From contig JBAZFL010000003.1 of the NCBI GenBank assembly GCA_041653455.1, positions 1-45,662 on the forward strand: a stretch of DNA of 45,662 nt, in the 5' to 3' direction. Made by a program: the position numbers and the translations under genes. The stretch is from Clostridia bacterium. Its GTDB lineage: Bacteria > Bacillota > Clostridia > DUPQ01. Of the stretch, positions 2,780 to 45,662 are shown piece after piece (the first letter of the stretch is position 1; each line of letters starts with the position of its first letter). The notes beneath the pieces are model-generated. The model was not told the origin of the DNA and ran no database searches. It was given only the letters and a program-made list of their open reading frames with translations.

Positions 2780-3277
2780 TCACTCCCAACAAGGTCTAAA
2801 CAGTATCGTGCCAAATTTATGCTTTGAGCCACCCTTGCAATCCCCGGCAATGAAATTCCTCGGACATAAGGTGCATTTATCGGCGTTCTTGTAATTCCGC
2901 TTAAAGCCAAAGATTTGCTTCCAGATAAGTTTTTCGCTCTGCACTTTGGGAGCCATAAACCCATTAAGGCGGCACTCTCGCAAAACATTCGCCCATTTTT
3001 CTAGTAGGTCAGTAGGTATTTTCTTCCGGCATATTTCCCAATCCATGCCTGTTTTTTGGTAGCCGATTAAATACTTAATCATTGAGTCCTTTTCGCTTTG
3101 TGTGAGCAATCCGTTCACAATTACTTCAGGTGGGCAATTTTCCAGCACGAGCCTCGGCAGCTTTGTTGGCTTCAAGTTCTCTGGTGACTGCGTCAAAATA
3201 GTCCTCTGCTTTCGGGTCGAGTACCCGATCTCTTCCATAATTTCCCCTACTGCTTCCGGCGGTCTGTCGATTTCCAT
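2780..3277 (-). CDS. Hypothetical protein (165 aa)
   Basis: ATG at 3275-3277 is preceded by a strong SD agggggg. It overlaps the 3' end of the DUF1376 gene by 152 nt in another frame. Confidence 0.5.
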   Translation of the reverse strand: MEIDRPPEAVGEIMEEIGYSTRKQRTILTQSPENLKPTKLPRLVLENCPPEVIVNGLLTQSEKDSMIKYLIGYQKTGMDWEICRKKIPTDLLEKWANVLRECRLNGFMAPKVQSEKLIWKQIFGFKRNYKNADKCTLCPRNFIAGDCKGGSKHKFGTILFRPCWE

Positions 3278-11497: not shown

Positions 11498-11616
11498 ATG
11501 TTAAAAGTTTCGGGGGCGACAATCATTACCACAACGGTATTTGCCGCCGCCGAGATAGCAGTCTGTAAGATTCCTAATATCCACTTCTTTACGGTCAATA
11601 CGTTTTCAGGGTTCAT
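11410..11616 (-). CDS. Small hydrophobic protein at end of lysis cassette (68 aa)
   Basis: WILGILQTAISAAANTVVVMIVAP is a putative TM segment. ATGA coupling with the DUF1353 gene. The 3' 88 nt overlap the HNH ORF antisense. Confidence 0.45.
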   Translation of the reverse strand: MNPENVLTVKKWILGILQTAISAAANTVVVMIVAPETFNIQEGLSKVGAVAGVSEAVTTAEMLMISDG

Positions 11617-12026
11617 GGCGCCTCCAATATTTTCTTTTCATTCTCTGCGTTAGCGGCGGCAAGAGCGAACTTACGGACTCCGATATACCAAATGTAAGCC
11701 CTTATCCGAAACATACCGTCTTCGATGCAAATATCCCTGAGCATAGCGTCTGCGGTCAGCCGTTCATGCTGGCTTATCTTTTCTTCCCGAAGCAACTGAT
11801 ATAGTGCATCGTGGACTAAAGCGCCGCGCATTGATGATTTTGTGTCTATGGTAGGGCCGGACGCTCCGTCCCAAGCATAGCCGCGCTTTACAGTCAACAT
11901 TCCTTCCGGTGTCAGTTTAATATATTCAGTGTCAACATCATACCCTGCGATTTGAGTTTGCAGAGAGTAATTATGATAGAGTTGGTATTTGTAACCGCTT
12001 GTGTATGTGATTTTGTCGCCCTTCAT
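11613..12026 (-). CDS. DUF1353-like protein
   Basis: GYAWDGASGPTIDT...ALVHDALY matches the DUF1353 pattern (G..tDGaS.P ... HD.lY). The ATG at 12024-12026 has SD ggtggg and ATGA coupling. The track start is a GTG. Confidence 0.6.
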   Translation of the reverse strand: MKGDKITYTSGYKYQLYHNYSLQTQIAGYDVDTEYIKLTPEGMLTVKRGYAWDGASGPTIDTKSSMRGALVHDALYQLLREEKISQHERLTADAMLRDICIEDGMFRIRAYIWYIGVRKFALAAANAENEKKILEAP

Positions 12027-12268
12027 TTTATCACCCACCTATTATCCTTCAGCGGTCTTAGACTTTCCCAAATCGCGTCTATATCTTTTTGCTGCTGTTT
12101 CTGAATTTTATCCCATTCATCTTTGGTGGCGATGTCGGCTTTACGCGCTGCCTCTTTGGATATTTTCCGCATAGATTGCTCAAATAGTTTCTGGTCAAAT
12201 TCATCTCCGGCGAAACAAAACGATGACAGAAAAAAGACCATTGATATTACCGCCAAGAATTTACTCAT
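12023..12268 (-). CDS. Secreted small protein (spanin-like position)
   Basis: N-terminal signal-like MSKFLAVISMVFFLSSFCFAG, followed by a charged helical remainder. Strong SD aaggagg. Confidence 0.55.
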   Translation of the reverse strand: MSKFLAVISMVFFLSSFCFAGDEFDQKLFEQSMRKISKEAARKADIATKDEWDKIQKQQQKDIDAIWESLRPLKDNRWVIK

Positions 12269-12373
12269 ATCGCCTCCTTGTTTCTAATATTTCCCTTTAT
12301 ATTATACGCTAACCGTTTTGTGGTTAATGCGTGATACGCAACCTCATCACTTTGCCGGCGTCGGCAAACCGAT

Positions 12374-12679
12374 CTACTTTTTCCCCATGTAGGTTACGCT
12401 GTAATGATTTCCGTCCTTAAACCTACCGCCCCAAGCACAGAGGGGGTCAAGGCTTTCCCAATATTCCCCAAACTGTTTATGGTCGTCCGTATTCGTTAAG
12501 TAAACACCGTCTTTCGTTAAGTCTATATCCACGGCAAGCCCTTCATAGTGCAGACTCCCCTTCATGTGTTTTAGACCGTCCTTGCCAAGCATAGGCTGAT
12601 AACCCTTGCTCAGCATGAAATTAATCAGGTCGGCAACATAGATGGTAAACTTCTTTCGCTTATCTCCAAGTTCGCTCAT
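12374..12679 (-). CDS. Peptidase M15 (VanY/L-Ala-D-Glu peptidase-like) endolysin
   Basis: HYEGLAVDID (H..G.A.D) and WGGRFKDGNHY (W.G...D..H) are zinc-ligand motifs. The ATG at 12677-12679 is ATGA-coupled to the upstream gene. Confidence 0.8.
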   Translation of the reverse strand: MSELGDKRKKFTIYVADLINFMLSKGYQPMLGKDGLKHMKGSLHYEGLAVDIDLTKDGVYLTNTDDHKQFGEYWESLDPLCAWGGRFKDGNHYSVTYMGKK

Positions 12680-13005
12680 ATAATCTCTATCCACTTAGCT
12701 AATCTGTTAATAACATCGGCGGCTGTATGACCATCCCACTTCGGAGCAACATCAAATGTTTTAATGTCTTTATTGTCTAACATAGACCACATCCATTGGG
12801 GTAAATGATATGTGATCGTTCCTGTTGGTAAATCAATCCCCGCCAAAAACCATGAAGGCCACTTTTCGCCATTATCGTTTTTATCTGCCCTCCAAGATAT
12901 TTTATGGTTGCATATCATCAGTGCAATCATTAAATGGCAACGGTGATCGTATAATTCGTCAAACGTGTGGTAGCCATCAGATATTTTCCCGGTATCTATT
13001 TCCAT
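12676..13005 (-). CDS. WDGH-motif conserved phage protein
   Basis: DGYHTFDELYDHR...ITYHLP...WDGHT matches a family I recognise only as conserved hypothetical. Confidence 0.55.
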   Translation of the reverse strand: MEIDTGKISDGYHTFDELYDHRCHLMIALMICNHKISWRADKNDNGEKWPSWFLAGIDLPTGTITYHLPQWMWSMLDNKDIKTFDVAPKWDGHTAADVINRLAKWIEII

Positions 13006-13068
13006 AATCCCCTAAACCAATCTTCCCAAATTTCGCACAATTCGGCTAATAGGTTTACCCAATTATCA

Positions 13069-13203
13069 ATCCGCGTTAATGACATACCTAAAAACTCCGT
13101 CAATCCAGATTGCGAAAAACAGGACTGCGCCGAATATCAGGCCAATCAATAAACCTATCGGCAAAGCTAACGCGGCAATAAAAATTAAGAGCAAGAGTTT
13201 CAT
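13069..13203 (-). CDS. Small two-TM-like membrane protein (holin candidate, 44 aa)
   Basis: Hand-translated MKLLLLIFIAALALPIGLLIGLIFGAVLFFAIWIDGVFRYVINAD. ATGA coupling to the upstream gene. Confidence 0.45.
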
Positions 13204-13457
13204 TTTTGTTTTCCGTTAAGCTGAAAGTCAATTAGCTTATCAAGCTTCCCCTCAATACGCTGAATGTCGCACCTGTATTGCTCCATATCAACTTTGTGCG
13301 TTTGCAGCTTCTCAATTTTGTCCTGCGCCTGTGATACGGTTAATCGGGTATCGGTAATAATGCCGGTCAAACAGATAAAAAGAATAGTCGCCAATCCGTA
13401 AACAATAGCTCTCCAAGTAATAAACCGATTTCCGTTTCCGCCGTTAGAATCTGCCAT
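13200..13457 (-). CDS. Membrane-anchored coiled-coil protein (holin/lysis regulator candidate, 85 aa)
   Basis: The ATG at 13455-13457 is preceded by aggagg. One TM (WRAIVYGLATILFICLTGII) is followed by a helical tail. The upstream part of the track ORF overlaps the preceding gene. Confidence 0.55.
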   Translation of the reverse strand: MADSNGGNGNRFITWRAIVYGLATILFICLTGIITDTRLTVSQAQDKIEKLQTHKVDMEQYRCDIQRIEGKLDKLIDFQLNGKQK

Positions 13458-13483: not shown

Positions 13484-15514
13484 TCACTCCAAAGTAAAAC
13501 CGCTTCCACTTCCTGTCGTACTTCCCATTGTTCGTCCGGCGCCTGATGCACTTGTAGAACCAAAAGTTACCGCTGCCCTTGATTTGCCCCTTAATGGGTG
13601 AGGGTAGGTGTAGGGTTGCCAGTACGCTGCCCATGCTGAGCCTGTCCATTTATAGAGAGTGCCTGTGATTGGTGTGACTGGATTCACGCCCTCAGTCTGT
13701 TTAATGTTGTCCGCTGATACGGAAGTGCACGGCATGGTTGTGATATTTGTAGGAACCCAAAAGCCAACACCAACCGTTGTCGGAGTGATAGCGTTCATTT
13801 CTGCGGCAGTTCCGCAAGATACGCCTACTGTACCATCAAAGGAACCAAGAGCAACATAATTGAAAAATTCTATATTTTCTACTAATTCAGGCGGATCGTT
13901 AAGCGTGTAAGTTGTATCGTTATCAAAATAATCGAAATTTTCAAGAGGCGTTCCGCGTTTTGCTATAATAGCATTATGGATAGTTTCGTCTGTTGCGCGT
14001 CTATTGTTTAAAAAATAACTATCATGAACTTTCCAGCAATTACAACTATCAGGTGTCCCTATCAAATAACCCGGACAAGTTTGTCTATCACCCTCAGTTT
14101 CCTTTGTAGCACGCGAGGAACACATATTAAGGGCATCTAGCGTTTCTTGGCTAGCCGAACCATGATCATTCCACTCCTCCCGCAGAGATATTACAGCGGT
14201 GCTAGTATCTGGCATCCTATTGTAAAAATATAAGTTTTTTTGCCCTCTAATGTCACTAAAATAACTAAGAATTAAATCTCCTCGTGTTGCTGTCATATTG
14301 TTTCCATATAATTCTAAATGCTGTCCGCCTGTGATGCTTGACTGGTTAGAATGCTCATCGAAATATATTTGCTGTGTTGAGTTATATGAATAATCTACCA
14401 ATCCAGTGACTATATTATATCTGATGGTAGCCGCCAAACCATCGTTGTTGTCTGCCGATACTAAAAATGATCCTTGTGGATAACCGTATCGTGAATATGT
14501 AACTCCTGCGGCATTAAGCAGTGTTGTCCCGCAGACAAAATCTCCGGCAGTATTTACAATCGTGATATACCCCATATTGGCTTGATTTTCGGGGACAGCG
14601 GGAACAGCGGCAATAGCAAGTGCGCTTGAGCCGTAACCAGTTGTGTAGTTATCCGTCCCGGCGGTTAAAGTCACCGCACCCAAAGCATCTGTCGAAACCC
14701 TATATATTCCCCATGTGTTTTGGGGTATTGTTCCTGCTGGTAACGCTGTTTCCGTTTCTGCAACGTCAACAAAAGTATGGTCTGGTAGCCAGTATGTAGA
14801 AGAAACATTTTTTACTTTTTTAAGATCAGTCGACCTAGATAGAGTCGGCCCAGACCATCTAAATATATTATCTTCAATATACCAGCCCGTTCCATCTCCC
14901 GGATAACTACGGTTAGATAAATTAAAAATGGAAGCGCCAAAAACATACGCTATCGTGTTATGTAAAAAGTTATTATCAACCACGCCCGTTGCCATACCAA
15001 TTTCTTTCCCTGTGCCATTACCGCCAACAATACGCGCCATATTAACTACGCGATTATGATGTATTCTAATCTTTCTAATAACTTTTGACGGAGGTTCTAT
15101 CATAACAGGAACCACACCATAAACTTTTGTCCCCGCGAAGGTGATTCCACTAACTTCAAAAATACCCGGACTATCCGCATGACCGGGAGTATTAAAGTAT
15201 TCAATATTATCTTCTGCCGTTGAATCAAAAACGACGTTGAATATTCCAACTGACTGTGTAGTAATCTCTGAATCTATAAATGTTGACGAATATCCAGCAC
15301 CCTGTATTTTTATATCCTTTGTCACATTTATTGGACTTGTATAACCAGTTCCCGTTCCGGCAGGGATAGCAACTGTGTCCCCATAGGTGGCGGCGTTAAT
15401 CGCCGTTTCCACATCGTCCCGATTAGCAGTTGCCGCAGTATGGGTGTCTGCCAACGCCGTTAAGGGCAGTAGCAATAATAAAATTATCAGGTATAGTTTT
15501 TTTATGGTGCGCAT
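13484..15514 (-). CDS. Signal-peptide-bearing right-handed beta-helix (pectate-lyase-like) protein; tailspike/depolymerase candidate
   Basis: The ATG at 15512-15514 has SD ggagggg. MRTIKKLYLIILLLLLPLTALA|DT is a Sec signal. DDVETAINAATYGDTVAIPAGTGTGY...IKIQGAG is the typical beta-helix N-cap motif. Confidence 0.65.
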   Translation of the reverse strand: MRTIKKLYLIILLLLLPLTALADTHTAATANRDDVETAINAATYGDTVAIPAGTGTGYTSPINVTKDIKIQGAGYSSTFIDSEITTQSVGIFNVVFDSTAEDNIEYFNTPGHADSPGIFEVSGITFAGTKVYGVVPVMIEPPSKVIRKIRIHHNRVVNMARIVGGNGTGKEIGMATGVVDNNFLHNTIAYVFGASIFNLSNRSYPGDGTGWYIEDNIFRWSGPTLSRSTDLKKVKNVSSTYWLPDHTFVDVAETETALPAGTIPQNTWGIYRVSTDALGAVTLTAGTDNYTTGYGSSALAIAAVPAVPENQANMGYITIVNTAGDFVCGTTLLNAAGVTYSRYGYPQGSFLVSADNNDGLAATIRYNIVTGLVDYSYNSTQQIYFDEHSNQSSITGGQHLELYGNNMTATRGDLILSYFSDIRGQKNLYFYNRMPDTSTAVISLREEWNDHGSASQETLDALNMCSSRATKETEGDRQTCPGYLIGTPDSCNCWKVHDSYFLNNRRATDETIHNAIIAKRGTPLENFDYFDNDTTYTLNDPPELVENIEFFNYVALGSFDGTVGVSCGTAAEMNAITPTTVGVGFWVPTNITTMPCTSVSADNIKQTEGVNPVTPITGTLYKWTGSAWAAYWQPYTYPHPLRGKSRAAVTFGSTSASGAGRTMGSTTGSGSGFTLE

Positions 15515-16104
15515 CCTATCACCCCTCCGATTGTTGTAAATGCGCCGGATGTCGACCAGGTGCTTCCCCCATCGGACGAATATTTGAAACCGCTTGTTCC
15601 ACTCGTTGTTCTCCCCCAATTAAGGGCAGATGCATCAGCTTTTTTGCATACAACCCAATATGATGCTGTGGTCGGGATGGTTTGGGTTGACGCAAAAAGA
15701 AAATCCTCTGTAGCGGGTGGATATGTGTCCTGTAAATTACTTTTCGTACACGTATAACCAGCTCCAACTATTGCATTTGGAGAACCAGCATTATCAGTCC
15801 AAAGTTCGCAGATACCACCAAAAGACCCTCCAGAATCGCTTATTGCTGCTGTTACTCCGGTAATCTGCGTTCCTGCCGATAGTGAACCAACTGGATAAGC
15901 ATACCAATTATCTTGTACTGAGGCGGTAGTTGATGGACTATTTGGAGTGGCAACTAATTCAGTATCATTTGAAGAAGTACATGAAACAGCCGCCGCACTC
16001 ACCCCGCTCACGCCACTTGCAACGCATCCACTCATTACCGCCCCTTGCTGACACCATCCGTTAGATGCCAGCAGAAGCAAGAAGATAATCAAATATTTTT
16101 TCAT
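15502..16104 (-). CDS. Signal-peptide-bearing Ser/Thr/Gly-rich protein (200 aa)
   Basis: MKKYLIIFLLLLASNGWC N-terminus. SD aggag. Confidence 0.6.
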   Translation of the reverse strand: MKKYLIIFLLLLASNGWCQQGAVMSGCVASGVSGVSAAAVSCTSSNDTELVATPNSPSTTASVQDNWYAYPVGSLSAGTQITGVTAAISDSGGSFGGICELWTDNAGSPNAIVGAGYTCTKSNLQDTYPPATEDFLFASTQTIPTTASYWVVCKKADASALNWGRTTSGTSGFKYSSDGGSTWSTSGAFTTIGGVIGCAP

Positions 16105-16112
16105 AGAAGCTC

Positions 16113-18290
16113 CTATGTCTGGACTGCTGTTCTGGAAACCTCATACCAATGCGTTCCATTGCTTATAAACCGAACAACGTAGAATTTACCCGCGTCAGTC
16201 CCTAATGTAAGCGTTCCGGTTGAAGAAACTAAAGTGGCATGGAAAGTGATTACTTCGTCTGCCGTGCCTGCCGTTGTGAAAATTATAGTAATCTCCTGTC
16301 CTGCATAACCGGCGCCGGAAAAAGTAATCGTCTGGTCTTCGTTGTCGTCAACGGTCAGTGTAAAACAGTTGGTCGTTGCTACCGTTAAGGCAGTATTCAC
16401 GCCATCACTTGCCAGAGCAGTACAAGCTCCTGCCATTGGGATATTGTATTCCACGCCGTTTGCGTTGGCTTTCCATGCTCCGGCATCAGGATATAATTCA
16501 TAAACCGAAGCCGTAGGCGCACGACCACCTGAGTTATTTGTTATCTTGATATAATTGTCATTCGTAACGTCTGCCACGGTAATCGGCTTGGCAAACGTCC
16601 AACCAGTCGCCGCAGAAGTCATCGTGTTCGATTCGTCATCCTGAGCATAGATAACCGCCCCTGCCGCTAGATATATGTCACTAAAGCCCAAAGAGCTTGT
16701 TCCTATGGTAGTGCCATCATGTGCCGTTGGCGTAATTGAAGTCGTGAAGGTCGGGGCAGTAAATACATTCACCCCTGTAAAGGTCTGCCCTGCATCTCTG
16801 CGAGCCATTGTTTGAGCCGCATCATCAACGGTAATTATTCTGCGTGTAGTTCCTCCAGTAGAAATGTCTATATATCCTGTGGTCACTGACTTTAGGCCGA
16901 CCGCATCATAATACTTCAAAGCTCCGTCATATCCTACTTCACCAGCAGCATCAGGAGAAGCATCGCCGAAGATTAAACCACCGGTTGCCACACCCTCCAA
17001 AAGTTGCGGATATGTCCCTGCTGTCAAAGATGGTGTTGAGATATAAACCGGCCCCGTTGTTGCCACTGGTTGATACCAAACCGTTACTCCTGCGGTTACG
17101 TTTACAGGGTCAACACCAGCAAGTTTAGTTGGCGCGACTGAATCATTAAATTGTGCTGCGGTATTGTCTGATCGGAAATTGGTATAGTACGCACAGACGC
17201 TTGAACCATTGCAACCCCATATACCGTTGGCAACAGGAGCAATCGCAGTCGGACTTGCAGCACCAGCAGTACCATTGGCAAGGATTGTGTAAGCTGCTTG
17301 AGGGGCAAGGGCGGTTAAAGCCACTTTTGCTGGATTAAGCAGCTCCCATCTTGTATTAGCTAGATTATACTCAAGTAGCATAACCGCGCCAGCACCTGGT
17401 ATATCTCCGGCAGCAAGAGCAACACCACCCTGTTTCACTATCGTATGAGCGGTTACACCATCAGGCGCAAAGGTCGGAGTGGTCGTGGCATTAGCCGCCG
17501 CAGCTTCTAAAGCAACCAGTGCTTTATCAACTAAGGTTACATCAGGATTGTAGTCCGCCACAATAGCGTCCGCTGTACCTGTGGCAATAGTGATGGGAAC
17601 AGAACCCGGCCCGCCTATGCCAGTTGTCGCCTGAAGAACAGTAAATTTACCAATATCAGCTATAACATCACCAATCGGAGTACCTTGAATAGAAGGCAGA
17701 ATCCACTGACCGTTTCCGTAGACGGTTCCAATAGGAGAGGTATAGTTATAAAACATCAGGACTGTCTCAGCATCAGCAAGAGCTTGCCAGCCCGTACCGT
17801 TTTTCTTGCCACCTCTAATTACAACAGCCGGATAAATGTCTGTAGGATCAGCCGCGCCAAGAATACCTGTCAGCCTCAAAGCTCCTGCTTGGTCAGCATC
17901 GGTTATGCCGTAAAGGTCAAGGCCGCCGATAGTTGAGGATATAGCCATAACTGCGCCATAGTCATTAGTGGGTGCAATGGAGGTTATGCCATGCTCAACA
18001 CCTGACTGGAAGAAATAGCCATTTGTGAAGTAGAAGTCAGATGGTGTAGTGCCACCGATTGTGCCGGGTGCGGTCAAATCGGTAGAAGTAATTTCGCTTA
18101 CAGCCGCCCCAGTCCCCTTATAGAGCTTGCCATCATCGGAATCTTGGCAAAGTTTTCCAATAGCGTAATAAGCGTCTGCGTTACATTCGGTAGAAACGGA
18201 AACACCACTACTGCCGCTATCCCACCCCGCGCTATATGCCGTAGTCGCACAAAACAGAATAACTAAAATTATTAACCATGTCTTTTTCAT
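16113..18290 (-). CDS. Signal-peptide-bearing large fibre-like protein (725 aa)
   Basis: The ATG at 18288-18290 has SD ggaga. MKKTWLIILVILFCATTAYS|AG is a Sec signal. The remainder is Gly/Ala/Thr-rich. Confidence 0.6.
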   Translation of the reverse strand: MKKTWLIILVILFCATTAYSAGWDSGSSGVSVSTECNADAYYAIGKLCQDSDDGKLYKGTGAAVSEITSTDLTAPGTIGGTTPSDFYFTNGYFFQSGVEHGITSIAPTNDYGAVMAISSTIGGLDLYGITDADQAGALRLTGILGAADPTDIYPAVVIRGGKKNGTGWQALADAETVLMFYNYTSPIGTVYGNGQWILPSIQGTPIGDVIADIGKFTVLQATTGIGGPGSVPITIATGTADAIVADYNPDVTLVDKALVALEAAAANATTTPTFAPDGVTAHTIVKQGGVALAAGDIPGAGAVMLLEYNLANTRWELLNPAKVALTALAPQAAYTILANGTAGAASPTAIAPVANGIWGCNGSSVCAYYTNFRSDNTAAQFNDSVAPTKLAGVDPVNVTAGVTVWYQPVATTGPVYISTPSLTAGTYPQLLEGVATGGLIFGDASPDAAGEVGYDGALKYYDAVGLKSVTTGYIDISTGGTTRRIITVDDAAQTMARRDAGQTFTGVNVFTAPTFTTSITPTAHDGTTIGTSSLGFSDIYLAAGAVIYAQDDESNTMTSAATGWTFAKPITVADVTNDNYIKITNNSGGRAPTASVYELYPDAGAWKANANGVEYNIPMAGACTALASDGVNTALTVATTNCFTLTVDDNEDQTITFSGAGYAGQEITIIFTTAGTADEVITFHATLVSSTGTLTLGTDAGKFYVVRFISNGTHWYEVSRTAVQT

Positions 18291-18301: not shown

Positions 18302-18679
18302 TTATTGAACATTCAATTTAAGGTTAATGACAGCATCGTACGATGTTCCCGTTTCCGTTGCCGTGATTTTCATAAACGGATATGGTGATGGCGTGAACGA
18401 TAACCCACCTAAACCGGAAGAACCAGAAGTTTTGGTTAGCCCTGTTGCTATCGAACTTGCACCAGTTGGCGTGAAATACGTTCCTGCTTTTGTTGAACAT
18501 ACCGTGTAAGCAATGGTTAAAGTGCCATCTCCGGTAATTAGATATTCAATGGAAAAATATCCGTTCTGTGCAATCTCCCTTAAATCAAAAGCCACCGATG
18601 TTGAAGTGGTGTTTTTGGTAACTGTTTGCGCTCCACCGAAAACATTGTAAGTTGTAATTGGTCTCATTCCTTTTGGCAT
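18302..18679 (-). CDS. Virion-associated hypothetical protein (125 aa)
   Basis: Strong SD aggagga. Lies within the fibre gene cluster. Confidence 0.6.
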   Translation of the reverse strand: MPKGMRPITTYNVFGGAQTVTKNTTSTSVAFDLREIAQNGYFSIEYLITGDGTLTIAYTVCSTKAGTYFTPTGASSIATGLTKTSGSSGLGGLSFTPSPYPFMKITATETGTSYDAVINLKLNVQ

Positions 18680-18704
18680 TTTTCTTTCCTCCTAATTAAA
18701 TTGG

Positions 18705-19628
18705 TTACGCTACATCAAAAAATAAATGTGCTCCTATTGCTTTGGTTCCAGAATCAGTCCACGTTCCAGATGAACCAGTCATATCTTTGGAAGCGGCAAC
18801 TGTATTAGAATTAGCCGCTAGAAAAACAGCGCAGTGAGCGTATGTCCCGCCGTTATCACTAGCTCTACCAACTGCCATTGTCTCTAGTGTGTTAGACGAA
18901 GTATAGGGAAGCGTAAAAGTGGAATTGGTTGCATTGCTTGTTCCCACAAGATGAAATGATACAAAAACTGTTTTCCCTATTTTTTTATAGTATATGCTTT
19001 TCGTGGTGAAACTTGCCCATCCCGTTACTGTTGATGTTGCAGAGTAATCAGTCCAAACGGTTTCACCGTCTGCCCATTCGGGAGCGGTAGCCCCGGAGTT
19101 CATTCTTTTATATTGATAGGCAGTCCCTTTGGCTAGCCTTGTCATAACACCGGAAGCCCTATACCAAGTATCTCCATCAGCGTCAGACCCAATGGCAAGG
19201 TTGTTACCCGTCTTGTTCATTTTATTGCTAGAGGTAACATCTTCATCAACTGTCAATGTCTTACTGGTAGAACCACCGGCTATTGTGAATCCAACAGTTT
19301 CTGATGTTTGAGTCAATAAAAGACCAAGAATCGTTTTAACTTGTGCCAATGTTTTCTTAGCCCAAGCAAAAGGTGATGCACCCGCTACGATAAAATCGGA
19401 CTCAGCAGTTGCGGCAACCGTGTCCATCTTGGTTGCCAACGCATCATAAACAGAGTTTCCATCCGGCGCATGAGTGGTGTCTCCGTCTGCAATGGAATGG
19501 ACTAAATTAACAGGGTCGCCCGGAGTTCCCTTTATCCCAATCATTCCTATGCTTATGACAGGGGTAATCAGTTCTACATTGAGATATAAGCTGTCTGAAT
19601 CTCCAATCGTAATTTGAATATCTTTCAT
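18705..19628 (-). CDS. Tail fibre-like protein
   Basis: The THAPDGNSVYDALATK motif recurs in phage tail fibre proteins. ATGA coupling upstream. Confidence 0.55.
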   Translation of the reverse strand: MKDIQITIGDSDSLYLNVELITPVISIGMIGIKGTPGDPVNLVHSIADGDTTHAPDGNSVYDALATKMDTVAATAESDFIVAGASPFAWAKKTLAQVKTILGLLLTQTSETVGFTIAGGSTSKTLTVDEDVTSSNKMNKTGNNLAIGSDADGDTWYRASGVMTRLAKGTAYQYKRMNSGATAPEWADGETVWTDYSATSTVTGWASFTTKSIYYKKIGKTVFVSFHLVGTSNATNSTFTLPYTSSNTLETMAVGRASDNGGTYAHCAVFLAANSNTVAASKDMTGSSGTWTDSGTKAIGAHLFFDVA

Positions 19629-19966
19629 GTCTTAGTGACCTCTGGACTAATAGTGACAGTGCCTTCAAGCAATCTTGTTACGGTTGTTCCTTCGGTAAGC
19701 TCCAAATCCCACACGCCACTTGTAATGGCAATATCTGCCGTATCTGTAGCTGACATAGTAACCGTGATAACTCCGGTTGTGGAATTTATGGTGCAATCAA
19801 ATTCGTAAGCGGTTGTTGCATCCGCCGTTTCCCTTAACTTGGCAGCGGCGGTTGCTGTGGACATATCATACACACCGCTATCATCAGTCACCGTTACTTC
19901 CAGCGTGTATGTAGAGCCTTGTTCCATTCTGTAATTTCCGGTTAAATTAAAAGTTCCTGCTGGCAT
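19625..19966 (-). CDS. Ig-like/beta-sandwich virion protein (113 aa)
   Basis: Alternating beta-strand pattern (TYTLEVTVTD...GVITVTMSATDTADI...WDLELT...LLEGTVTISPEVT). Confidence 0.45.
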   Translation of the reverse strand: MPAGTFNLTGNYRMEQGSTYTLEVTVTDDSGVYDMSTATAAAKLRETADATTAYEFDCTINSTTGVITVTMSATDTADIAITSGVWDLELTEGTTVTRLLEGTVTISPEVTKT

Positions 19967-21861
19967 TATTGACTCCTTCGTCTTGCGTTTCTTAAACCTT
20001 TTAAATATTGTTCTTCGTTCAAATCACCGTAAAGTCGTTCAAGTTTTGCATTACCCACTCTAGGGATTATTTCTTGTGTTGAGAAATCTTGCCACGGAAT
20101 CTGTGAAGGCTCTGGCGGTCTATTCCCTGTTAATCTGGGAATGGAAGTAAACTCCGCGTCAATAACATCTGAGGGTTGCGGTTTCGTTCTAAGTGGTCTC
20201 AATACCTCGCCCGTTGGTTCACCTTTAAGCGTAAACCCTCTTTCGGGCATTGGTAATCCAAGCGGAGTCGGGATAGCACCTGAAGCGTCACTGAAGGGAT
20301 ATTCGGGGGGCGCTTGCGTGAATTTACCCTTTATATATTGCCCTGTCTTGCTTGCGGGCTGAAATTCTGTTCCCTTAGTCATTATGCTGTCAACATCGGA
20401 GAACATCTTTTTAACGTAGGTGTCAGGGTTTTTCAGGTTGCGCCTTAAAATATTCAATGCTTCCATAAAGCCACCACCTGCGATAGTAGCAGGATTCAAA
20501 GTAAGCAATCCATGAACTAATGCCGTACCTGATGTAATGTCAAAAAAGTTAGGGGTGCCCTTTTCAGCGAAAGCGGCGAAAGTAGCTTTGTTCGTTCCTT
20601 CGCGTAAAGACTTAACAGAGCCGTATCTTCTCTTAATATCCTGATAACCAGCGCCCTCAGTGCTTTCGATTAACTTATCCAACTCCTTCCGCATGATGCT
20701 GGCAATACCAGCATCGGCTGATGCTTTGGAAACATCCAGCGGCATAAGGTTTTTGTTGAGCAACTTGTTATTGGCTTGTGCGATAAAGTCCTGTGCCGCT
20801 TCCGGTGACATTGTTTTGATTTCTCTTAATATGGTTTGCGCTTCCTCTGCGTGTTTAATTACTGCCCTGCCTTCTTTTGTTGCCCTTAATGTTTCGTTGT
20901 TAATAACGTCATCGTACTGTTTTGCTATTGGTTCAAGGTCTAGTCTTGCACCCTTTCCTGTTGCCGCTTTCTGCATTGTATCGTATTCTGTAAACAGTTT
21001 CTTTTCGGTTGAGTGAATAGCCTGTGACATTTGCAATCTTGTTTCGGGTAAAGCTCCGTTTACTATTTCCCCAACATCATTAGTCAAATTCAACCCCTGC
21101 TTGTTGTTGATTATTTCTTTTATTCCGGTTCCGGCATCGGTAAAATACTTCTCTATTAAAGGTAGCGTTTGTTTCCCCTTAGAAGTAGCCTTGATTGACT
21201 TGTTAAGGTTGTCCTTGACTATTTGATTTATTTCCCGATCAACAACGCTTTTCGTTACTGGTTGAATCTTGCGGTTTACCATTTCCATTGCATCGGCAAC
21301 AACCGCGCCTGTTTCTTCTGCCGCCTTACCACCAAACTTTTTAAAAGCGGATAAAGTCTTGGCTGCTGGCATAATCATTGAGGCGTTGGCTATATTACCT
21401 AAATCATTTTTAACATCTTCGGGTAATTCACCATAAGCAGTCTTTGCCGCATCAACAACAGGGTTTGTAGCAATCATCTTGCCAATACCGCTTATATTTT
21501 CTTGTGCTGATTTAGGCATGGCCTTATAAGCACTTCTTAAACCAGTGCTGACAACATCACCGACAAAACCACCCACTTGACCGGCAACATTCAGTCCGGC
21601 ACCAAGAGCGGGATTAAATTCTCTAACGGCAGAAGGTTGAGGGTTGGATATGTTCTCAATCCGTCTTTTACCGGCAGTTACTAAATCCGATACAAAACCT
21701 TCCTCAACTGGTTTAGTAACCGTTGTCGTTTCTTCTGTTGGTTTCTTTGGCTTTACGCCGGATTGTAAATATTCTAAGGTAGATGTGCTAACCTTATCGT
21801 ATTGCTTGTTTTGCAAAGCCTCTAAATCTTCAGTTGATATTTCGCTATAATCTATCGCCAT
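19966..21861 (-). CDS. Large virion/internal (ejection-like) protein
   Basis: Call rests on position and size. Mostly helical, with a Gly-rich N-terminal segment. No motif recognised. Confidence 0.45.
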   Translation of the reverse strand: MAIDYSEISTEDLEALQNKQYDKVSTSTLEYLQSGVKPKKPTEETTTVTKPVEEGFVSDLVTAGKRRIENISNPQPSAVREFNPALGAGLNVAGQVGGFVGDVVSTGLRSAYKAMPKSAQENISGIGKMIATNPVVDAAKTAYGELPEDVKNDLGNIANASMIMPAAKTLSAFKKFGGKAAEETGAVVADAMEMVNRKIQPVTKSVVDREINQIVKDNLNKSIKATSKGKQTLPLIEKYFTDAGTGIKEIINNKQGLNLTNDVGEIVNGALPETRLQMSQAIHSTEKKLFTEYDTMQKAATGKGARLDLEPIAKQYDDVINNETLRATKEGRAVIKHAEEAQTILREIKTMSPEAAQDFIAQANNKLLNKNLMPLDVSKASADAGIASIMRKELDKLIESTEGAGYQDIKRRYGSVKSLREGTNKATFAAFAEKGTPNFFDITSGTALVHGLLTLNPATIAGGGFMEALNILRRNLKNPDTYVKKMFSDVDSIMTKGTEFQPASKTGQYIKGKFTQAPPEYPFSDASGAIPTPLGLPMPERGFTLKGEPTGEVLRPLRTKPQPSDVIDAEFTSIPRLTGNRPPEPSQIPWQDFSTQEIIPRVGNAKLERLYGDLNEEQYLKGLRNARRRSQ

Positions 21862-21864
21862 TGA

Positions 21865-23163
21865 TTACTTACCTTTGCGGCGTTTCAGTTCTGCCGCGAT
21901 TGCGTCCATATCAATTCCACCGGGATTAGTATTGACAGGGGATTCCCCAATAGCTCCCATTTCTTTTATTAAATAGTTTGTGGAATCAAGCCATGTGCTT
22001 AATCTCATATTTGCCATTTTCTTAGTCCCTTCCAAGACGGGCAATATTTCTTTCAGAGGCAAGTTAATATCGTGTATTCTTAACCACTCTTTTCTGTTAC
22101 CTTCGGGAAGTTGCGCTATTGAAGCAGAAGAACCTTGTGCTAACTTATTCGCTTCCATTGAAATTTCTTGCAGGAATAATTCATATTGGCGTTCCAAGCC
22201 ACTACCGGCAACCCTTGTTCGTAATTCTCTTAACGGCAAGTTAAGCAATCTAAAGTCGGTTCTTTTCAAACCGTCAAACAGTTCTTTGGCGTAATCAACT
22301 TGCGTGTTGATGTTGTTAACAAAGGCTCGCATAGGTGCTTCCTGCTTTTTCATATTACCAAGCGAACTAGAACCAGACTTGTAGGTTGCTTGCATCACAA
22401 CGACATCATTTGCCGTTAATCCTTTTTCTTTGATGTATTTATAATATTCATCGTTAAATATTCTTCGTTCCTGCCAATCACGATTTGAGACGTTTAAAGG
22501 GTCTTTGCCTGTAATCATTTTTGTTTTAATCGCTATTTCTTTTGCTTCTGGTTCCCAATTTTTAAAAGAGTCTTTTTCTTTTTCTTTCTGTGTTCGGTTA
22601 TACTTTTTCTGTTCTTGTATTTCCGCCTCTCTTTTCGTTATCTCTTTTTCAGCCATTCCCATGAACATTTGAAACTGCCCTAACATCTGCTGTTTCTCTT
22701 GTGCTTTTTTAACGTATTCCTGCTCTCCTACTTTCTGCGCTTGTTCAAGAAGTTTGGGAGTAACCTCACCCATCCTTCCTTTATTCTTCTCTATGAAAGC
22801 CTTTGCAGCACTGTTCCCTTCATAAGTTGGGTCTATTTCATTCGGGTCTGTTCCTTTAAACATATCAGCAATGACATTTTTCTTTATTTCTGCCAGTTTT
22901 GCAGATACGCTTAATTCAAGGTCAGTTGGCTTTTTAGGGATTGGGTTATAGTCCTGCATTGTCTGTTGTGGAACATAGACTGTTTCGGCAGTAGGTTTGT
23001 CTTGCGGAACATTGGTAAATAAAGGAACACCGCCAGCATCAGAAATTTCCTGACCTCTTTTCCCTGCATCCACAATAGCTGTTGCCGCCAATGCCCTTTT
23101 TTTCTTTTCTTCTTCGGGGTCATCAGGTATATAACTTGGGTACATTGCATTAGGTACATCCAT
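21865..23163 (-). CDS. Charged coiled-coil virion/internal protein
   Basis: Call rests on position. Lys/Glu-rich helical sequence. Strong SD aaggaga. Confidence 0.45.
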   Translation of the reverse strand: MDVPNAMYPSYIPDDPEEEKKKRALAATAIVDAGKRGQEISDAGGVPLFTNVPQDKPTAETVYVPQQTMQDYNPIPKKPTDLELSVSAKLAEIKKNVIADMFKGTDPNEIDPTYEGNSAAKAFIEKNKGRMGEVTPKLLEQAQKVGEQEYVKKAQEKQQMLGQFQMFMGMAEKEITKREAEIQEQKKYNRTQKEKEKDSFKNWEPEAKEIAIKTKMITGKDPLNVSNRDWQERRIFNDEYYKYIKEKGLTANDVVVMQATYKSGSSSLGNMKKQEAPMRAFVNNINTQVDYAKELFDGLKRTDFRLLNLPLRELRTRVAGSGLERQYELFLQEISMEANKLAQGSSASIAQLPEGNRKEWLRIHDINLPLKEILPVLEGTKKMANMRLSTWLDSTNYLIKEMGAIGESPVNTNPGGIDMDAIAAELKRRKGK

Positions 23164-23174
23164 TGACTTTCTCC

Positions 23175-24065
23175 TTAATAACTTGTTCCGCTACCTGTAT
23201 TGAGTTGAGTTAATCCACCGGTATAAGGTTTACCCGAATAATATTTGCTGACCGGATTATCAATAGAGCTACTTACCGCACCGTATTTAGTGGCGCCTGT
23301 CCCGTACATCTTAGCCATGTAGTCGGAAAGCTGAGCTTGGTATTCAGCCATCTTTGTGGTCAAGTTTGCTTGATAATTGGTCTTGTCGGCTTCCAACTGT
23401 GCGGTGTAATTCTTCTCCGCCTCGGAAGTCTTACCGGCATATTCCTGTTGAGATTTAATTAACTCAGTATTGTAATTGAGCTTGCCACCCTCAACACCAG
23501 CATTAAAGGTTGTCTTGGAGGCATCGGCTTCAATCCCGTATTCTGTATTGTATTGGTTTCTGGCTTCCCCGCTAGCACCGGCAATGACATTTTCCACACC
23601 CAAACCGTAACCGGCTAGGGCATCCCGCAAGGTCATTCTCTTAACATTCGGGTTTTCGTAATAACCGCCTGTGGTCTGCTGTAATGCCATTCGTGCCGCC
23701 CTTAATCCGGGTGCGGCCTTCTTTTGGGCAAGAGATTCCACCTTGCCTTCATCATAAGTAGGTGCGTTATAAGTAGGAGCAACGTATTTTTCGGGGGCAA
23801 CGTATGTTGGCGCTGTATATGTCACGCTAGGCGTATATTCCGGTATGGTAGGAACGGAAGGCATTGTTATATTAGAATAAGGGCTACCGTTATTAAAAGT
23901 GTCGGTTGATTTCTTCCATTCCTCATAACCCATGCTCTGAGCTTCAACGCCGTAATCACCCCTTGCAACTTTCTCGGCTTCCTGTTGACTGGCTAAATCC
24001 TTATAACCAGCCGCCCTCGCTCTTTGATTATAGGCTTCTAATTCCCCCGGTGCGTATGATGCCAT
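23175..24065 (-). CDS. Virion/internal protein with AP-x-Y peptide repeats
   Basis: TYTAPTYVAPEKYVAPTYNAPTYDEG repeats. Strong SD aggagagg. Confidence 0.45.
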   Translation of the reverse strand: MASYAPGELEAYNQRARAAGYKDLASQQEAEKVARGDYGVEAQSMGYEEWKKSTDTFNNGSPYSNITMPSVPTIPEYTPSVTYTAPTYVAPEKYVAPTYNAPTYDEGKVESLAQKKAAPGLRAARMALQQTTGGYYENPNVKRMTLRDALAGYGLGVENVIAGASGEARNQYNTEYGIEADASKTTFNAGVEGGKLNYNTELIKSQQEYAGKTSEAEKNYTAQLEADKTNYQANLTTKMAEYQAQLSDYMAKMYGTGATKYGAVSSSIDNPVSKYYSGKPYTGGLTQLNTGSGTSY

Positions 24066-24075
24066 AATTCCTCTC

Positions 24076-25710
24076 CTATCCTTTGTACCAGACCATAAGT
24101 TCTGTTTCCGTTAGTGTCTTGCCACCGGACATTAAAGAGATAATCACATATCGTTGATTAGCCGTTAATTCCGGGGTGTAATAAATAACCGTTAACCCTG
24201 AATATCTGCTGAATGAACCCCAATCGCCAATTCCATCTTTTACCCTTCCAGACCACAAATACTTGTCACCGCTGTATCTTGGCGAAACAATCGAAAGATT
24301 AGCCTTTTCGCCGCTTGGAATATTCACCCCAACATCAGAGTATATTGATTCAATAGCCCCGCCAAATCTCATACTAGCGGTGGGTACTGTTTTTCCCATT
24401 AGTCTGTAGTTTTCTCTTGCGTATGCGTTAAAATTATCCTTGCTTGCTAACTGTGAAGAAAAGTCGAAATACATATCGTTTCTATCAGGGGTCTCGCCCA
24501 AGACCTTGCTCAACGCCGTTTCCTTGATGCTTACCGAAACCTCTGTGGGCGTATCATCAAACAGATAAACCATTGAGTTATAGTCTGTTGATAGATAGGG
24601 TCGTTTAAAATCACCGGCAGGAAAGTTATAGCCAATGGATTTTACATAATGTTCGGTAAGGTCGCTGGAAAACTCCAAATACGTTTTTGCCTTGCTCATT
24701 TGCTGCAATCTTCCGTAATCCGGTGAATAGTTTGCCGCCGCCGTTGCCTTTAGATAGCTGTTGTTTGTTGGAATAACCGTTACCGTGGCATAATCATAGG
24801 TAGTTCCCGAAGTATTGGTTGCCGCCAATGTGTATGAAGTTGTTTCTACCGGGTTGACTATTTTCGTACCACTTGAACCAACATTTCCTATTCCCTGACT
24901 TAATGTCACTGAGTCTGCGCCTACCGTTTCCCATGCCAGTTGTGACGATGTTCCAAATTCCATATTCTCCGGGTCGGCGGTAAATGAAGTGATTGAAGGT
25001 AACTGTATTGTTACCGTAACATCAGATGTGTCGCTTCCAGAGGCATTAGTGACGGTAAGTGTATAGGTAGTAGTAACTGTCGGATAAAGGTCTATCGTTC
25101 CATCAACTGTCGTTGCGCCAACTGTGGGACTGATTGAGGCGCTTGTTCCATCGGTGCTTGTCCATGTCAAAGTAACAGCGTTCCCATTTATTAAAGATTC
25201 GGGGTCGGCAGTAAACGTATCAATGGTCGGTAATGCTAACGATGTAACAACAACATAAAAATGAGAGCAATAAGCAGTGCCAGATAACTCGCCCAAACTA
25301 AGAAACACAATCCCGCTTAAATTGTCTATGTCTGTCCAAGTCCACGCCGCGCTAGTTGTTGGATTCAGGCTAATATCCCTACTGTATTCTACCCATGATT
25401 CCGTAACACCGCTAACGCTGTAAAGATACTCGCTCCCGCTGACAACAACACCAATTCCAGCAGTTATGCCGTTTGCGGGATTTACCATTGCTTTTTTTAA
25501 TCTGGCATAAATAGTTATCTTGCTTATAGATTCCGTTTCCGTTGTGTGGTTAGTTAATAAATAGTAATCTTTTCCATTCCCTGTGGTGTAAACATAATCT
25601 CCATCATCAGCTACGGCTTCATCAACAAGAGCATAGTGGTCAGAACCTGCGCTGCAAGTAAGCGTGAGGACTGCACCATCACCAGTTGGCCTAAGCGTTA
25701 AGGTACTCAT
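24076..25710 (-). CDS. Virion protein with two tandem Ig-like repeats
   Basis: Residues about 160-236 and 237-312 are visibly homologous (LPTIDTFTADPESL...TTTYTLTVTNASG versus LPSITSFTADPENM...TTSYTLAATNTSG). Confidence 0.55.
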   Translation of the reverse strand: MSTLTLRPTGDGAVLTLTCSAGSDHYALVDEAVADDGDYVYTTGNGKDYYLLTNHTTETESISKITIYARLKKAMVNPANGITAGIGVVVSGSEYLYSVSGVTESWVEYSRDISLNPTTSAAWTWTDIDNLSGIVFLSLGELSGTAYCSHFYVVVTSLALPTIDTFTADPESLINGNAVTLTWTSTDGTSASISPTVGATTVDGTIDLYPTVTTTYTLTVTNASGSDTSDVTVTIQLPSITSFTADPENMEFGTSSQLAWETVGADSVTLSQGIGNVGSSGTKIVNPVETTSYTLAATNTSGTTYDYATVTVIPTNNSYLKATAAANYSPDYGRLQQMSKAKTYLEFSSDLTEHYVKSIGYNFPAGDFKRPYLSTDYNSMVYLFDDTPTEVSVSIKETALSKVLGETPDRNDMYFDFSSQLASKDNFNAYARENYRLMGKTVPTASMRFGGAIESIYSDVGVNIPSGEKANLSIVSPRYSGDKYLWSGRVKDGIGDWGSFSRYSGLTVIYYTPELTANQRYVIISLMSGGKTLTETELMVWYKG

Positions 25711-28972: not shown

Positions 28973-29597
28973 CTTTAAAGTCCTTGATTGGGTTGTGCTT
29001 AAAGTTTATGTGACTTTTCATTCTATTGGCGCGAACCATCTCTCCACAAATTCCACACGCTATTAATTCTTCGGCGCTATTATTTTTTTTTTGATTAACT
29101 GGTTCTTGCTGACCGCCTTTGGCTACCGTTGCCATGACTTCTTGCATCTGGTTTAACAGTGCCGCCATTTGCGTCTTTAATTCTTCGTTCTCCCTGCTAA
29201 GTTTTCCAATCTGCCCCTTTTCTCCTTCTGCCAGTGAATAGGGTTGCAATAACTCAATCCCTAACTCGATTGCGTATTGCTTGATTATCTTGCTTGGCAC
29301 ATCGTAGGGCTGACCGGATGCCTTACGTCTTTCATTCCTTTCGTTGTAGGTAACAATCTGCTTAATCTTAAATTCTCTGTTTCTCTCAATCGCGTCTTTG
29401 GCTATTGCATCTTCCTCGATTGACTTGCCATCATCATCAAAAATCAGTTTGGTCATGCCCCTTGCGGTAAGGTTATTCAGAACGTGCTTACCCATTGCTT
29501 CGTCAACCTTCATTCGCTTACCGGCAAGCAGGGTGTAACTTAATCCGGCATAACTAAACGGCATGTCCTCGTTCGTAGGATTCCATAAAAAAATCAT
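28947..29597 (-). CDS. Hypothetical protein with coiled coil and C-terminal C2H2-like zinc motif
   Basis: The ATG at 29595-29597 is preceded by ggaggg at 5-nt spacing. CGICGE...HINFKH at the C-terminus. Confidence 0.5.
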   Translation of the reverse strand: MIFLWNPTNEDMPFSYAGLSYTLLAGKRMKVDEAMGKHVLNNLTARGMTKLIFDDDGKSIEEDAIAKDAIERNREFKIKQIVTYNERNERRKASGQPYDVPSKIIKQYAIELGIELLQPYSLAEGEKGQIGKLSRENEELKTQMAALLNQMQEVMATVAKGGQQEPVNQKKNNSAEELIACGICGEMVRANRMKSHINFKHNPIKDFKDDTKPVPV

Positions 29598-45324: not shown

Positions 45325-45555
45325 TCATTGTTTCTCCATTTTCTCGGCTATGAGCAAATCCGCGTAATGCTTAATTTTAATCATATCAATAGGATTAAGC
45401 TCTTTATCCGCATTACGGGTGGCATATTTTATGATTGAGGATAGCGCAAAAGGTTTAAAAATGCCCTTTGCCTTATACAAATCTATTGGTTCAACTGTTC
45501 CCGTTTTGTAGTGTTCGCTACCTTCGTTTTTTAATTCTTCCCATGTCTTAAACAT
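45325..45555 (-). CDS. DUF3310-like protein
   Basis: HYKTGTVEPIDLY...SSIIKYATR...IKIKHYADLL fits the DUF3310 pattern. The ATG at 45553-45555 is preceded by aaggagggg. This start lies inside the terminal overlap. Confidence 0.65.
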   Translation of the reverse strand: MFKTWEELKNEGSEHYKTGTVEPIDLYKAKGIFKPFALSSIIKYATRNADKELNPIDMIKIKHYADLLIAEKMEKQ

Positions 45556-45662
45556 TTCCCCTCCTTGCCGTTTATTTGTCCGATGTTTTGTCATAATTAT
45601 GTGTTTGTTTTTGTGTCATATCTTCCCGCCAAACGCCGCGAAAATGTCCTTTAAAATGTCCG
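45536..45662. repeat. Contig-end overlap, copy 2 (identical to 1..127)
   Basis: Read directly. Confidence 0.95.

Follow-up and report, generated by a model that had tools for sequence, protein, structure and literature searches.

The window analysed here is the whole of a 45,662-nucleotide stretch, contig JBAZFL010000003.1 of the Clostridia bacterium assembly GCA_041653455.1, and its fibre region contains three consecutive minus-strand genes, A, B and C, whose products all begin with predicted Sec-type signal peptides. The contig represents a complete tailed-phage genome of ~45.5 kb, either circularly assembled or terminally redundant, as indicated by an exact 127-nt direct terminal repeat (1-127 and 45536-45662). 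Late genes lie on the minus strand in the order large terminase, portal, HK97-type capsid protein, SU10-type adaptor, 805-aa tail protein and large virion/ejection proteins, followed by the A/B/C region and then by a lysis-type block. Recombination and replication genes are also present, and no tRNA gene was found in the window. The capsid protein matches cultured phages only among actinophages and only at 24-26% identity, which permits no inference of host or lineage, and it has no match in 185,579 GTDB species genomes. A DNA search with the 6-kb A/B/C region against 50,697 phage records likewise returned no match.

Gene A (16113..18290, minus strand) encodes 725 aa comprising a signal peptide, an N-terminal module with a cysteine loop (the N-module), a mosaic fibre shaft and a C-terminal tip domain. 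Gene B (15502..16104, minus strand) encodes 200 aa with a signal peptide, a low-complexity Gly/Ser/Ala linker and a beta-sandwich, and gene C (13484..15514, minus strand) encodes 676 aa with a signal peptide, a right-handed beta-helix-like body and a Gly/Ser/Thr tail. Each open reading frame (ORF) starts at an ATG behind a good ribosome-binding site: GGAG at 6 nt from the ATG at 18290 for A, AGGAG at 5 nt from the ATG at 16104 for B, and GGAGGGG at 7 nt from the ATG at 15514 for C. The starts chosen in the preliminary description, which was made from the sequence alone, therefore stand; an ATG further upstream of A (18302) adds only MEIN. Packing is tight: along the series ORF125, A, B, C and the next gene, the gaps measure 11, 8, -13 and 26 nt, and a scan for promoter- and terminator-like sites found no enrichment and none at the cassette borders. 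An autonomous moron was rejected on these two grounds.

A, B and C have no match in Pfam or PHROGs, and PDB sequences returned nothing useful. The three proteins contain seven cysteines each, and the alignments of all three families include invariant cysteine pairs; eight neighbouring virion-module genes (18302-25710) encode 0-2 cysteines, and the 805-aa tail protein has 11. The proteins were originally described as three large fibre- or depolymerase-like products, a characterization that suits the fibre-like A and the beta-helix-like C but not B, which is small. Their slot is as first described, with the cassette lying between conventional fibre genes and the lysis block.

The N-termini of A, B and C are predicted to be genuine, conserved signal peptides of the Sec/signal peptidase I type. 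The signal peptide of A covers aa 1-20 (18231..18290, minus strand; MKKTWLIILVILFCATTAYS), with a predicted cut after A-Y-S and AG following, and that of C covers aa 1-22 (15449..15514, minus strand; MRTIKKLYLIILLLLLPLTALA), with a cut after A-L-A and DT following. The leader of B reads MKKYLIIFLLLLASNG(WC), then QQ, and covers aa 1-16/18. The n-regions are basic (MKK in A and B, MRTIKK in C), and the Leu/Ile cores are uncharged and 10-16 residues long, below membrane-anchor length. The best 10-residue Kyte-Doolittle mean is 3.6 in A and 3.2 in B, and C has a proline at -6. Small residues occupy positions -3 and -1 in A (A-Y-S before A) and in C (A-L-A before D); the site in B is ambiguous, either S-N-G before W or G-W-C before Q. 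Among the ~39 real genes of the window, hydrophobic N-termini are found only in A, B, C, two 81-aa proteins and small membrane proteins of the lysis region.

The leaders are conserved in shape across the homologues. They are kept in 10 of 10 homologues of C and 3 of 3 homologues of B, with differing sequences, and 89 of 103 members of the A N-module family pass a strict hydrophobicity score. The N-module matches that fail are 5'-truncated, borderline or unrelated weak matches. In C, P0009 and P0011, conservation begins at the predicted mature residue, DTH(T/N). Together with the tripartite shape and the ribosome-binding sites, this retention of the hydrophobic N-terminus bears out the Sec-type leaders proposed in the preliminary description. 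The same description raised the possibility of uncleaved N-terminal helices used as virion anchors. This is opposed by the short cores, by leader sequences that vary, and by a mature start that is conserved as DTHT in C and two of its homologues.

Alternative start codons do not account for the leaders. Wrong starts were rejected, as the upstream ATGs are the ones that match the ribosome-binding sites, and no suitable downstream start that would remove the leader lies ahead of the conserved domains of A and C; A has no in-frame start between its leader and its conserved module (residues 33-67). The start set for C by the gene caller (TTG, codon 14; deposited as P0001, 663 aa) falls within the hydrophobic core, so that automatic annotation hides the leader. 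B does contain an in-frame internal ATG (Met24, 16033-16035), five bases after AAGGGG, that would yield a leaderless 177-aa form, but Met24 is absent from the homologues (P0133, P0134), all of which keep the leader.

Two other export routes were considered for A, B and C and rejected. A bacterial lipoprotein processed by signal peptidase II would carry a lipobox, and no [LVI][ASTVI][GAS]C motif occurs at the leader end of any of the three. Cysteines do occur in the leaders of A (ILFC, inside the core) and B (NGWC), with none in that of C, and some C homologues have borderline lipobox-like ends (...AWGAC or ...AYAAC). Cargo of the type IX secretion system was rejected for lack of a C-terminal sorting domain in Pfam searches of the three proteins. 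Gln comes next after about one fifth of the A-family leaders, as it does in Bacteroidota, which is a hint only.

Protein A is a mosaic. Its 332 homologues match separate modules, some of which are common to more than 100 tail fibres, in agreement with its original description as fibre-like. A short Gly/Ser stretch separates the leader from the N-module (18090..18194, minus strand; aa 33-67, TECNADAYYAIGKLCQDSDDGKLYKGTGAAVSEI), in which alignment reveals two invariant cysteines and the motif TECNxxxYYxIGKLCQDxDDGKLYKGTG. A search of 1.84 billion cluster representatives with this module gave 105 matches, and 96 sequences carry the motif. The family comprises ~95 protein clusters of 79-1571 aa, in which the module sits at residues ~25-75, immediately after the leader, and every full-length member has a leader. 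The N-module is encoded by 10 viral contigs, as against one 3.8-kb contig of a metagenome-assembled genome (MAG) among the 185,579 species genomes. It spans SU10-like (the window), P22-like (L028/L029) and siphovirus (L021) tail types, and no virion protein common to the N-module loci was found in their 10-kb flanks at BLAST sensitivity. A module shared among several tail types without a common nearby virion protein fits a docking partner on the host side.

The remaining modules of A differ in how closely they are tied to leaders. Module 2 (17619..18086, minus strand; aa 69-224) occurs mostly in other signal-peptide proteins and in a few leaderless fibres; it is 60-83% identical to P0013, P0016, P0021, P0027, P0038 and proteins of L003/L004/L005, and three of the seven proteins that match module 2 alone have a leader. 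Module 3 (17301..17618, minus strand; aa 225-330) is a ~95-aa shaft unit, often in tandem and widespread in ordinary phage tail fibres: only 13 of the 102 proteins that match it alone have a leader, and it also occurs in the 986-aa fibre of the relative L020 and in one protein named "phage tail protein". The C-terminal tip domain (16116..16751, minus strand; aa 514-725) is common only to signal-peptide proteins, with identities of 42% to P0018 and 55-56% to P0063 and P0064. The docking-type N-terminus shared with tail fibres is not on A and is found instead on the neighbouring fibre ORF307.

Protein B may be a sugar-binding-type partner. Its beta-sandwich (aa ~64-199) follows the leader helix and a disordered linker in a low-confidence model (predicted local distance difference test, pLDDT, 59), the best fold matches of which are carbohydrate-binding modules and are not significant. 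Cysteine makes up 3.5% of the protein. Compared with the homologue P0135, the N-terminus is 95% identical and the body has diverged.

Protein C is a putative polysaccharide-active beta-helix enzyme, and its family also has leader-bearing members encoded by cells. C and ten homologues align along a beta-rich body that ends ...PYTYPHPL, and in the phage clade formed by C and P0002-P0005 (46-49% identity) there is an additional insertion of ~110 aa. The invariant motifs WYIEDN, RYN and YGNN are not mappable to a known active site. The AlphaFold model is beta-rich (pLDDT 66), and the top 5 and most of the top 50 Foldseek matches are beta-helix carbohydrate enzymes, among them AlgE4 epimerase, PL6 alginate lyases, RbmB, GH87 and pectin methylesterases, though all are weak (E ~1e-3, TM score <0.3). 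The homologue P0007, which has a leader and lies on an archaeal contig with DNA polymerase D, matches Pfam Pel9A-like_beta_helix. P0006, also leader-bearing, lies on a bacterial contig beside Wzy, a flippase, glycosyltransferases and other polysaccharide genes. The Pfam match and the weak fold matches agree with the beta-helix, carbohydrate-enzyme-like character first ascribed to C.

A conventional fibre set is retained in the window upstream of A. ORF307 (18705..19628, minus strand) is a conventional leaderless tail fibre, the first 37 aa of which are 68% identical to the N-terminus of P0086, the 986-aa fibre of L020. ORF113 (19625..19966, minus strand) is a fibre-associated beta-sandwich that matches phrog_1084 (8e-20) and phrog_3304, "L-shaped tail fiber protein assembly" (3e-7), and is 75% identical to its L020 homologue. 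ORF125 (18302..18679, minus strand), a small leaderless protein directly upstream of A, belongs to a family retrieved by jackhmmer.

Close relatives reveal that the cassette is accessory. Alignment identified 47 viral loci that share the 805-aa tail protein, 22 of them with at least 5 kb downstream. Leader-bearing proteins occupy the position of the window's cassette in four of these 22 (L018, L042, L047 and L068), as runs of two or three in L042, L047 and L068 and as a single protein before the contig ends in L018. L019 and L020 lack the cassette and have ordinary fibres followed by lysis genes. Some close relatives thus have the cassette and others do not. Leader-bearing proteins begin right after the ORF631 homologue in L042 and L068, without a leaderless fibre in the available stretch. 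A further leader-bearing family of ~155-177 aa (mature start A/G-G-S-C..., later TCTGDG) immediately precedes leader-bearing fibre-like genes in L025 (9462-9995), L042 (18188-18670) and L068 (18315-18779) and is the last ORF before the contig end in L018 (7151-7645). Members of this family may be partners or adaptors of leader-bearing fibres.

Comparison of the relatives also indicates that the leader is a switchable add-on, as aligned sequences place the same fibre and partner proteins with and without it. A 660-aa leader-bearing fibre of L068 (SP660) is collinear with a 654-aa leaderless fibre of L019, and only the N-terminus differs (MKKRIGIITLIIAFCVSIAYA, then VPPTPP, in L068; MVKFGWDKLKRLLAQDNTWTGTQTFSD in L019). 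The ORF125 family is leaderless in the window and in L019, and its L047 member has a grafted leader that ends where ORF125 begins. A diversity-generating retroelement (DGR; region 18789-22470) targets the L068 fibre. The variable region at the 3' end of the fibre gene (20641-20733) is 86% identical to the template repeat (21209-21301), mismatches fall at template adenines, and an Avd-like 130-aa gene lies between the two repeats. The C-type-lectin-style variable region ends GFRLACYPE, and the leaderless L019 fibre has the same end.

Cassettes of the same kind recur in other viral contigs. Two to four consecutive leader-bearing proteins are found in a similar position, often in the same order, and the succession of fibre-like protein, ~200-aa protein and beta-helix protein, all with leaders, recurs in unrelated viral contigs, usually right before the endolysin. 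The leader run of L037/L038 consists of a 122-aa protein, a 553-aa fibre-like protein, a ~200-aa protein and a 685-aa C homologue. L026 encodes a 906-aa N-module fibre, a 243-aa protein, a 550-aa Pfam Beta_helix protein, an 843-aa C-family member (E 1e-28) and an endolysin; L023 encodes a 674-aa N-module fibre, a 238-aa protein, a 498-aa Beta_helix protein and a 1373-aa protein. L004 has a 414-aa protein with A module 2, then two beta-helix-like proteins (the 486-aa one matches Pfam Beta_helix) and an endolysin. In L035, a ~170-aa protein precedes a 677-aa C homologue, after which come small membrane proteins, a GH108 endolysin and a DUF1353 protein. A normal fibre, three leader proteins and a lysozyme follow one another in L032; two leader proteins, an endolysin and DUF1353 are inserted between P22-type connector genes in L005; and a leader-bearing fibre follows a J-like protein in the siphovirus L021. 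The signal-peptide cassette adjoins lysis genes in the window, L004, L005, L026, L032 and L035.

The ~200-aa proteins at the corresponding place in L023, L026, L035 and L037 are not picked up by a B-family profile, nor did Pfam return anything for them, so that "B-like" rests on position, size and leader only. C used as an anchor for related viral contigs gave no match, and ORF113 gave distant loci only. Judged by gene order and predicted leaders, A, B and C belong to a widespread, previously undescribed class of exported phage "fibre" cassettes. This syntenic recurrence, the presence or absence of the cassette in close relatives, the proteins with and without leaders and the cellular members of the C family had all gone unnoticed in the preliminary description.

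A separate observation concerns the border of one such cassette. Just after the C homologue, L035 encodes a 76-aa membrane protein (2842-3072) ending ...DPHPLRGSLGSASTGITASGVSIQ, which copies the C-terminal tail (...YPHPLRGSTATVSGATISGVVIQ) of that upstream homologue. The copied tail is probably a recombination or duplication scar.

The function of the cassette can be read in several ways. The reading that we favour, tentatively and with somewhat less than even confidence, is that A, B and C make up an accessory cassette, expressed late and exported through Sec, whose products act beyond the cytoplasm on glycans of the envelope. The precursors would cross the inner membrane through Sec and be cleaved by signal peptidase I, and the conserved cysteines (two in the A N-module, several in B and C) would form disulfides outside the cytoplasm. 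A would be a trimeric, fibre-like glycan binder whose shaft and tip are exchanged freely with real tail fibres, and its N-module would dock to a conserved partner, probably an element of the envelope. Shortly before lysis, A and B would bind and C would cut host surface or nascent polysaccharide on the periplasmic or outer side. A receptor or matrix stripped or masked in this way could facilitate release, prevent progeny from binding to debris and exclude superinfecting phages. Wzy-type polymerisation takes place at the periplasmic face, and periplasmic enzymes of the AlgL, PslG and BcsZ type serve cellular polysaccharide pathways.

Four observations point to this envelope-directed role. The cellular relatives of C are leader-bearing, and one of them lies in an exopolysaccharide locus. 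The window retains its conventional fibre set of ORF113, ORF307 and ORF125. The N-module occurs in three tail types without a common virion partner, and the phage encodes a glycosyltransferase of the lipopolysaccharide (LPS)-core type. The conserved leaders, the invariant cysteine pairs, the close packing within the late operon and the accessory occurrence beside lysis genes also fit this role. Other findings weigh against the envelope-directed role. In L042, L047 and L068 the sole fibre-like genes in the stretch examined beyond the ORF631-like or preceding gene encode signal-peptide proteins, and the leader-bearing L068 fibre is a DGR target, as expected of a protein that truly binds the receptor. 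Virion-docking domains, too, are classically recognised as conserved N-terminal domains of mosaic fibres. The structural models of B and C are of low confidence, and their fold matches are weak. Neither a lipobox nor a Pfam secretion-tail domain was found that would provide an outer-membrane route, and Sec alone reaches only the periplasm of a two-membrane host.

Several of the same findings speak for a rival reading, which we consider possible but unlikely, in which A, B and C are true virion fibres or spikes that are exported, fold and acquire disulfides outside the cytoplasm, and join fibreless or partly fibred particles at or after lysis. As far as the loci extend, every protein in the fibre slot of L042, L047 and L068 has a signal peptide, and the DGR-targeted L068 fibre is collinear with a leaderless one. 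The occurrence of the ORF125 family with and without a leader suggests that whole fibre sets change compartment together. A itself combines shaft modules of real fibres with a conserved N-terminal module and variable tips, and the long fibres of T4 can be attached to fibreless particles in vitro. The spread of the N-module over three tail types with no common virion partner within 10 kb argues against virion fibres, as does the conventional fibre set already present in the window. The 27-aa N-terminus of the leaderless homologue is missing from the L068 fibre, and attachment during the burst would be inefficient. To our knowledge, no tailed phage has leader-cleaved virion fibres. A broader version of this proposal, which we also regard as doubtful, is that a sizeable uncultured group of tailed phages exports its receptor-binding fibres, including DGR-diversified ones, through Sec, matures them by disulfide formation and adds them to the particle at or after lysis, with gain or loss of the leader switching whole sets. 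If so, part of tailed-phage assembly would be extracytoplasmic.

A dual localisation, to which we give only a slim chance, would combine the two: an exported fraction would act on the envelope, and a cytoplasmic fraction, left by slow late Sec export or made from an internal start, would be built into virions. Alternative starts that yield free and virion-bound depolymerase are known, Met24 of B would supply a leaderless form, and the same proteins exist with and without leaders among the relatives. Met24 is not conserved in the B homologues, however, A and C have no suitable internal start ahead of their conserved domains, and a virion fibre with an uncleaved hydrophobic leader would be prone to aggregation.

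The cassette is still less likely to be lysogenic-conversion cargo, that is, moron-type secreted adhesins or enzymes that benefit the host cell through adhesion or biofilm remodelling rather than the lytic cycle. Secreted cargo genes often lie near tail-fibre or lysis genes, as do lambda lom, bor and streptococcal prophage toxin genes. Gene A has a guanine-plus-cytosine content of 48% against ~43% for the genome, and its closest analogues, the MAT fibres of Bdellovibrio described below, are cellular. Against cargo stand the lack of any integrase or repressor-like gene among the window ORFs scanned, the absence of room for, or any sign of, a promoter or terminator of the cassette's own, the near absence of the N-module from the species genomes in contrast to its presence in 10 viral contigs, and the lack of a capsid gene match in the same genomes.

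That the N-termini are not export signals at all, being uncleaved structural or anchor helices or start-codon artefacts, is very improbable: the later C start of the gene caller and the non-canonical cleavage site of B would suit it, but the ribosome-binding sites, the lack of alternative starts ahead of conserved domains, the short cores, and leaders that vary in sequence and keep their shape up to a conserved predicted +1 residue all oppose it.

The cassette extends known kinds of proteins, on the one hand phage fibres and depolymerases, on the other exported phage or cellular surface proteins. The closest architectural analogues are the MAT fibres of Bdellovibrio bacteriovorus, which combine a signal peptide, a conserved N-domain, a mosaic phage-like trimeric shaft and interchangeable C-terminal tips (PMC10769870). 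The MAT N-domain has been proposed to anchor the fibre to an element of the cell surface (PMC10769870). A shares the order of signal peptide, N-domain and mosaic fibre, a likeness of architecture. MAT fibres are encoded by chromosomal genes of a predatory bacterium, whereas A is a late phage gene, and the MAT N-domain is ~130 aa long and beta-rich, whereas the A module is ~35-45 aa with a cysteine loop. Unlike MAT fibres, A is accompanied in its cassette by a small partner and a putative beta-helix enzyme, and lysis genes lie alongside.

Exported phage proteins encoded beside receptor-binding genes are known, including T5 Llp, Cor of phi80/N15 and lambda Lom. Llp and Cor act on the receptor, block superinfection and protect progeny. 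These are lipoproteins or outer-membrane proteins of 70-200 aa unrelated to fibres, whereas A and C are large, fibre- and enzyme-like, composed of modules of tail fibres, and have signal peptidase I-type leaders without a lipobox. Late phage proteins can use host Sec, as do the Sec-exported or signal-anchor-release endolysins Lys44 of Oenococcus phage fOg44 and Lyz of P1. Lys44 and Lyz are peptidoglycan hydrolases of the lysis pathway, and the endolysin of the window is itself leaderless.

C resembles phage beta-helix tailspikes and depolymerases in its beta-helix-type body and its position in the fibre/spike slot, and Pfam Beta_helix scores above threshold in signal-peptide proteins of other cassettes. 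The phage depolymerases known to us have no export signal and rely on a virion-docking N-terminus or on release by lysis. C differs in having a leader and no docking domain, and its nearest non-phage relatives are cellular and leader-bearing. It shares the combination of signal peptide and beta-helix-type body with RbmB of Vibrio cholerae, PL6 alginate lyases and AlgE4, and its homologue P0006 lies in an exopolysaccharide-type locus. Unlike these cellular enzymes, C has no PDB sequence match, belongs to a phage clade with a ~110-aa insertion and yields only weak fold matches.

Tail fibres and spikes are regarded as cytoplasmic products, and an export signal has been used as an argument for cellular origin. 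Searches of the literature, incomplete and largely outside subscription journals, returned no report of leader-bearing tail fibres or fibre cassettes in tailed phages. DGR surveys found signal peptides or membrane anchors in cellular targets and none in phage targets or tail proteins (PMC6199706; PMC8144416), which agrees with the earlier remark that export signals in this slot would be unusual. The DGR-target fibre of L068, with its predicted leader, contradicts this rule. L068 unites a phage fibre slot with a signal peptide in a DGR system, whereas A, B and C of the window have no retroelement.

A large mosaic family of phage fibre-like proteins thus carries leaders, occurs in cassettes with enzyme-like partners beside lysis genes and swaps modules with ordinary fibres. 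If the proteins are exported effectors, they would represent a new phage route to remodel or mask surface glycans of the host from beyond the cytoplasm, and secretable glycan binders and depolymerases could be drawn from them. Should they be virion parts, the tailed-phage assembly pathway would need an extra compartment. Either way, annotation pipelines are misled, whether they call all such proteins "tail fibre" or drop signal-peptide proteins as non-viral.

The glycosyltransferase of the window is a 558-aa protein (29554-31230, minus strand) whose gene lies within the structural module, with the head genes on one side and the SU10-type adaptor on the other. It matches Pfam Glyco_transf_8 (8.5e-8) and the heptosyltransferase family Glyco_transf_9 (1.8e-13). 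These matches suggest an LPS-core-type double glycosyltransferase and hint at an LPS-bearing host, with surface-glycan or virion glycosylation.

The lysis-type block (11613..13457, minus strand) lies directly downstream of C, and all its genes are on the minus strand. It begins with an 85-aa membrane/coiled-coil protein (13200-13457) and a 45-aa two-helix holin-like ORF (13066-13203). A WDGH-domain protein (12676-13005; Pfam PF25311, 1.5e-32) lies between the holin-like ORFs and a leaderless M15 endolysin (12374-12694). The block also contains an 81-aa signal-peptide protein (12023-12268) and a DUF1353 protein (11613-12038) that matches phrog_1158, labelled tail assembly chaperone. The best match of the endolysin, at 46% identity, is that of L026 (17840-18301), an otherwise unrelated phage in which the endolysin also comes after a signal-peptide cassette of fibre, beta-helix and C-like proteins. 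The cassette and lysis genes may move together. DUF1353 lies beside an endolysin and a signal-peptide cassette in three different phages, namely the window, L005 (11083-11502) and L035 (4345-4776), and the copies in the window and L005 are 50% identical.

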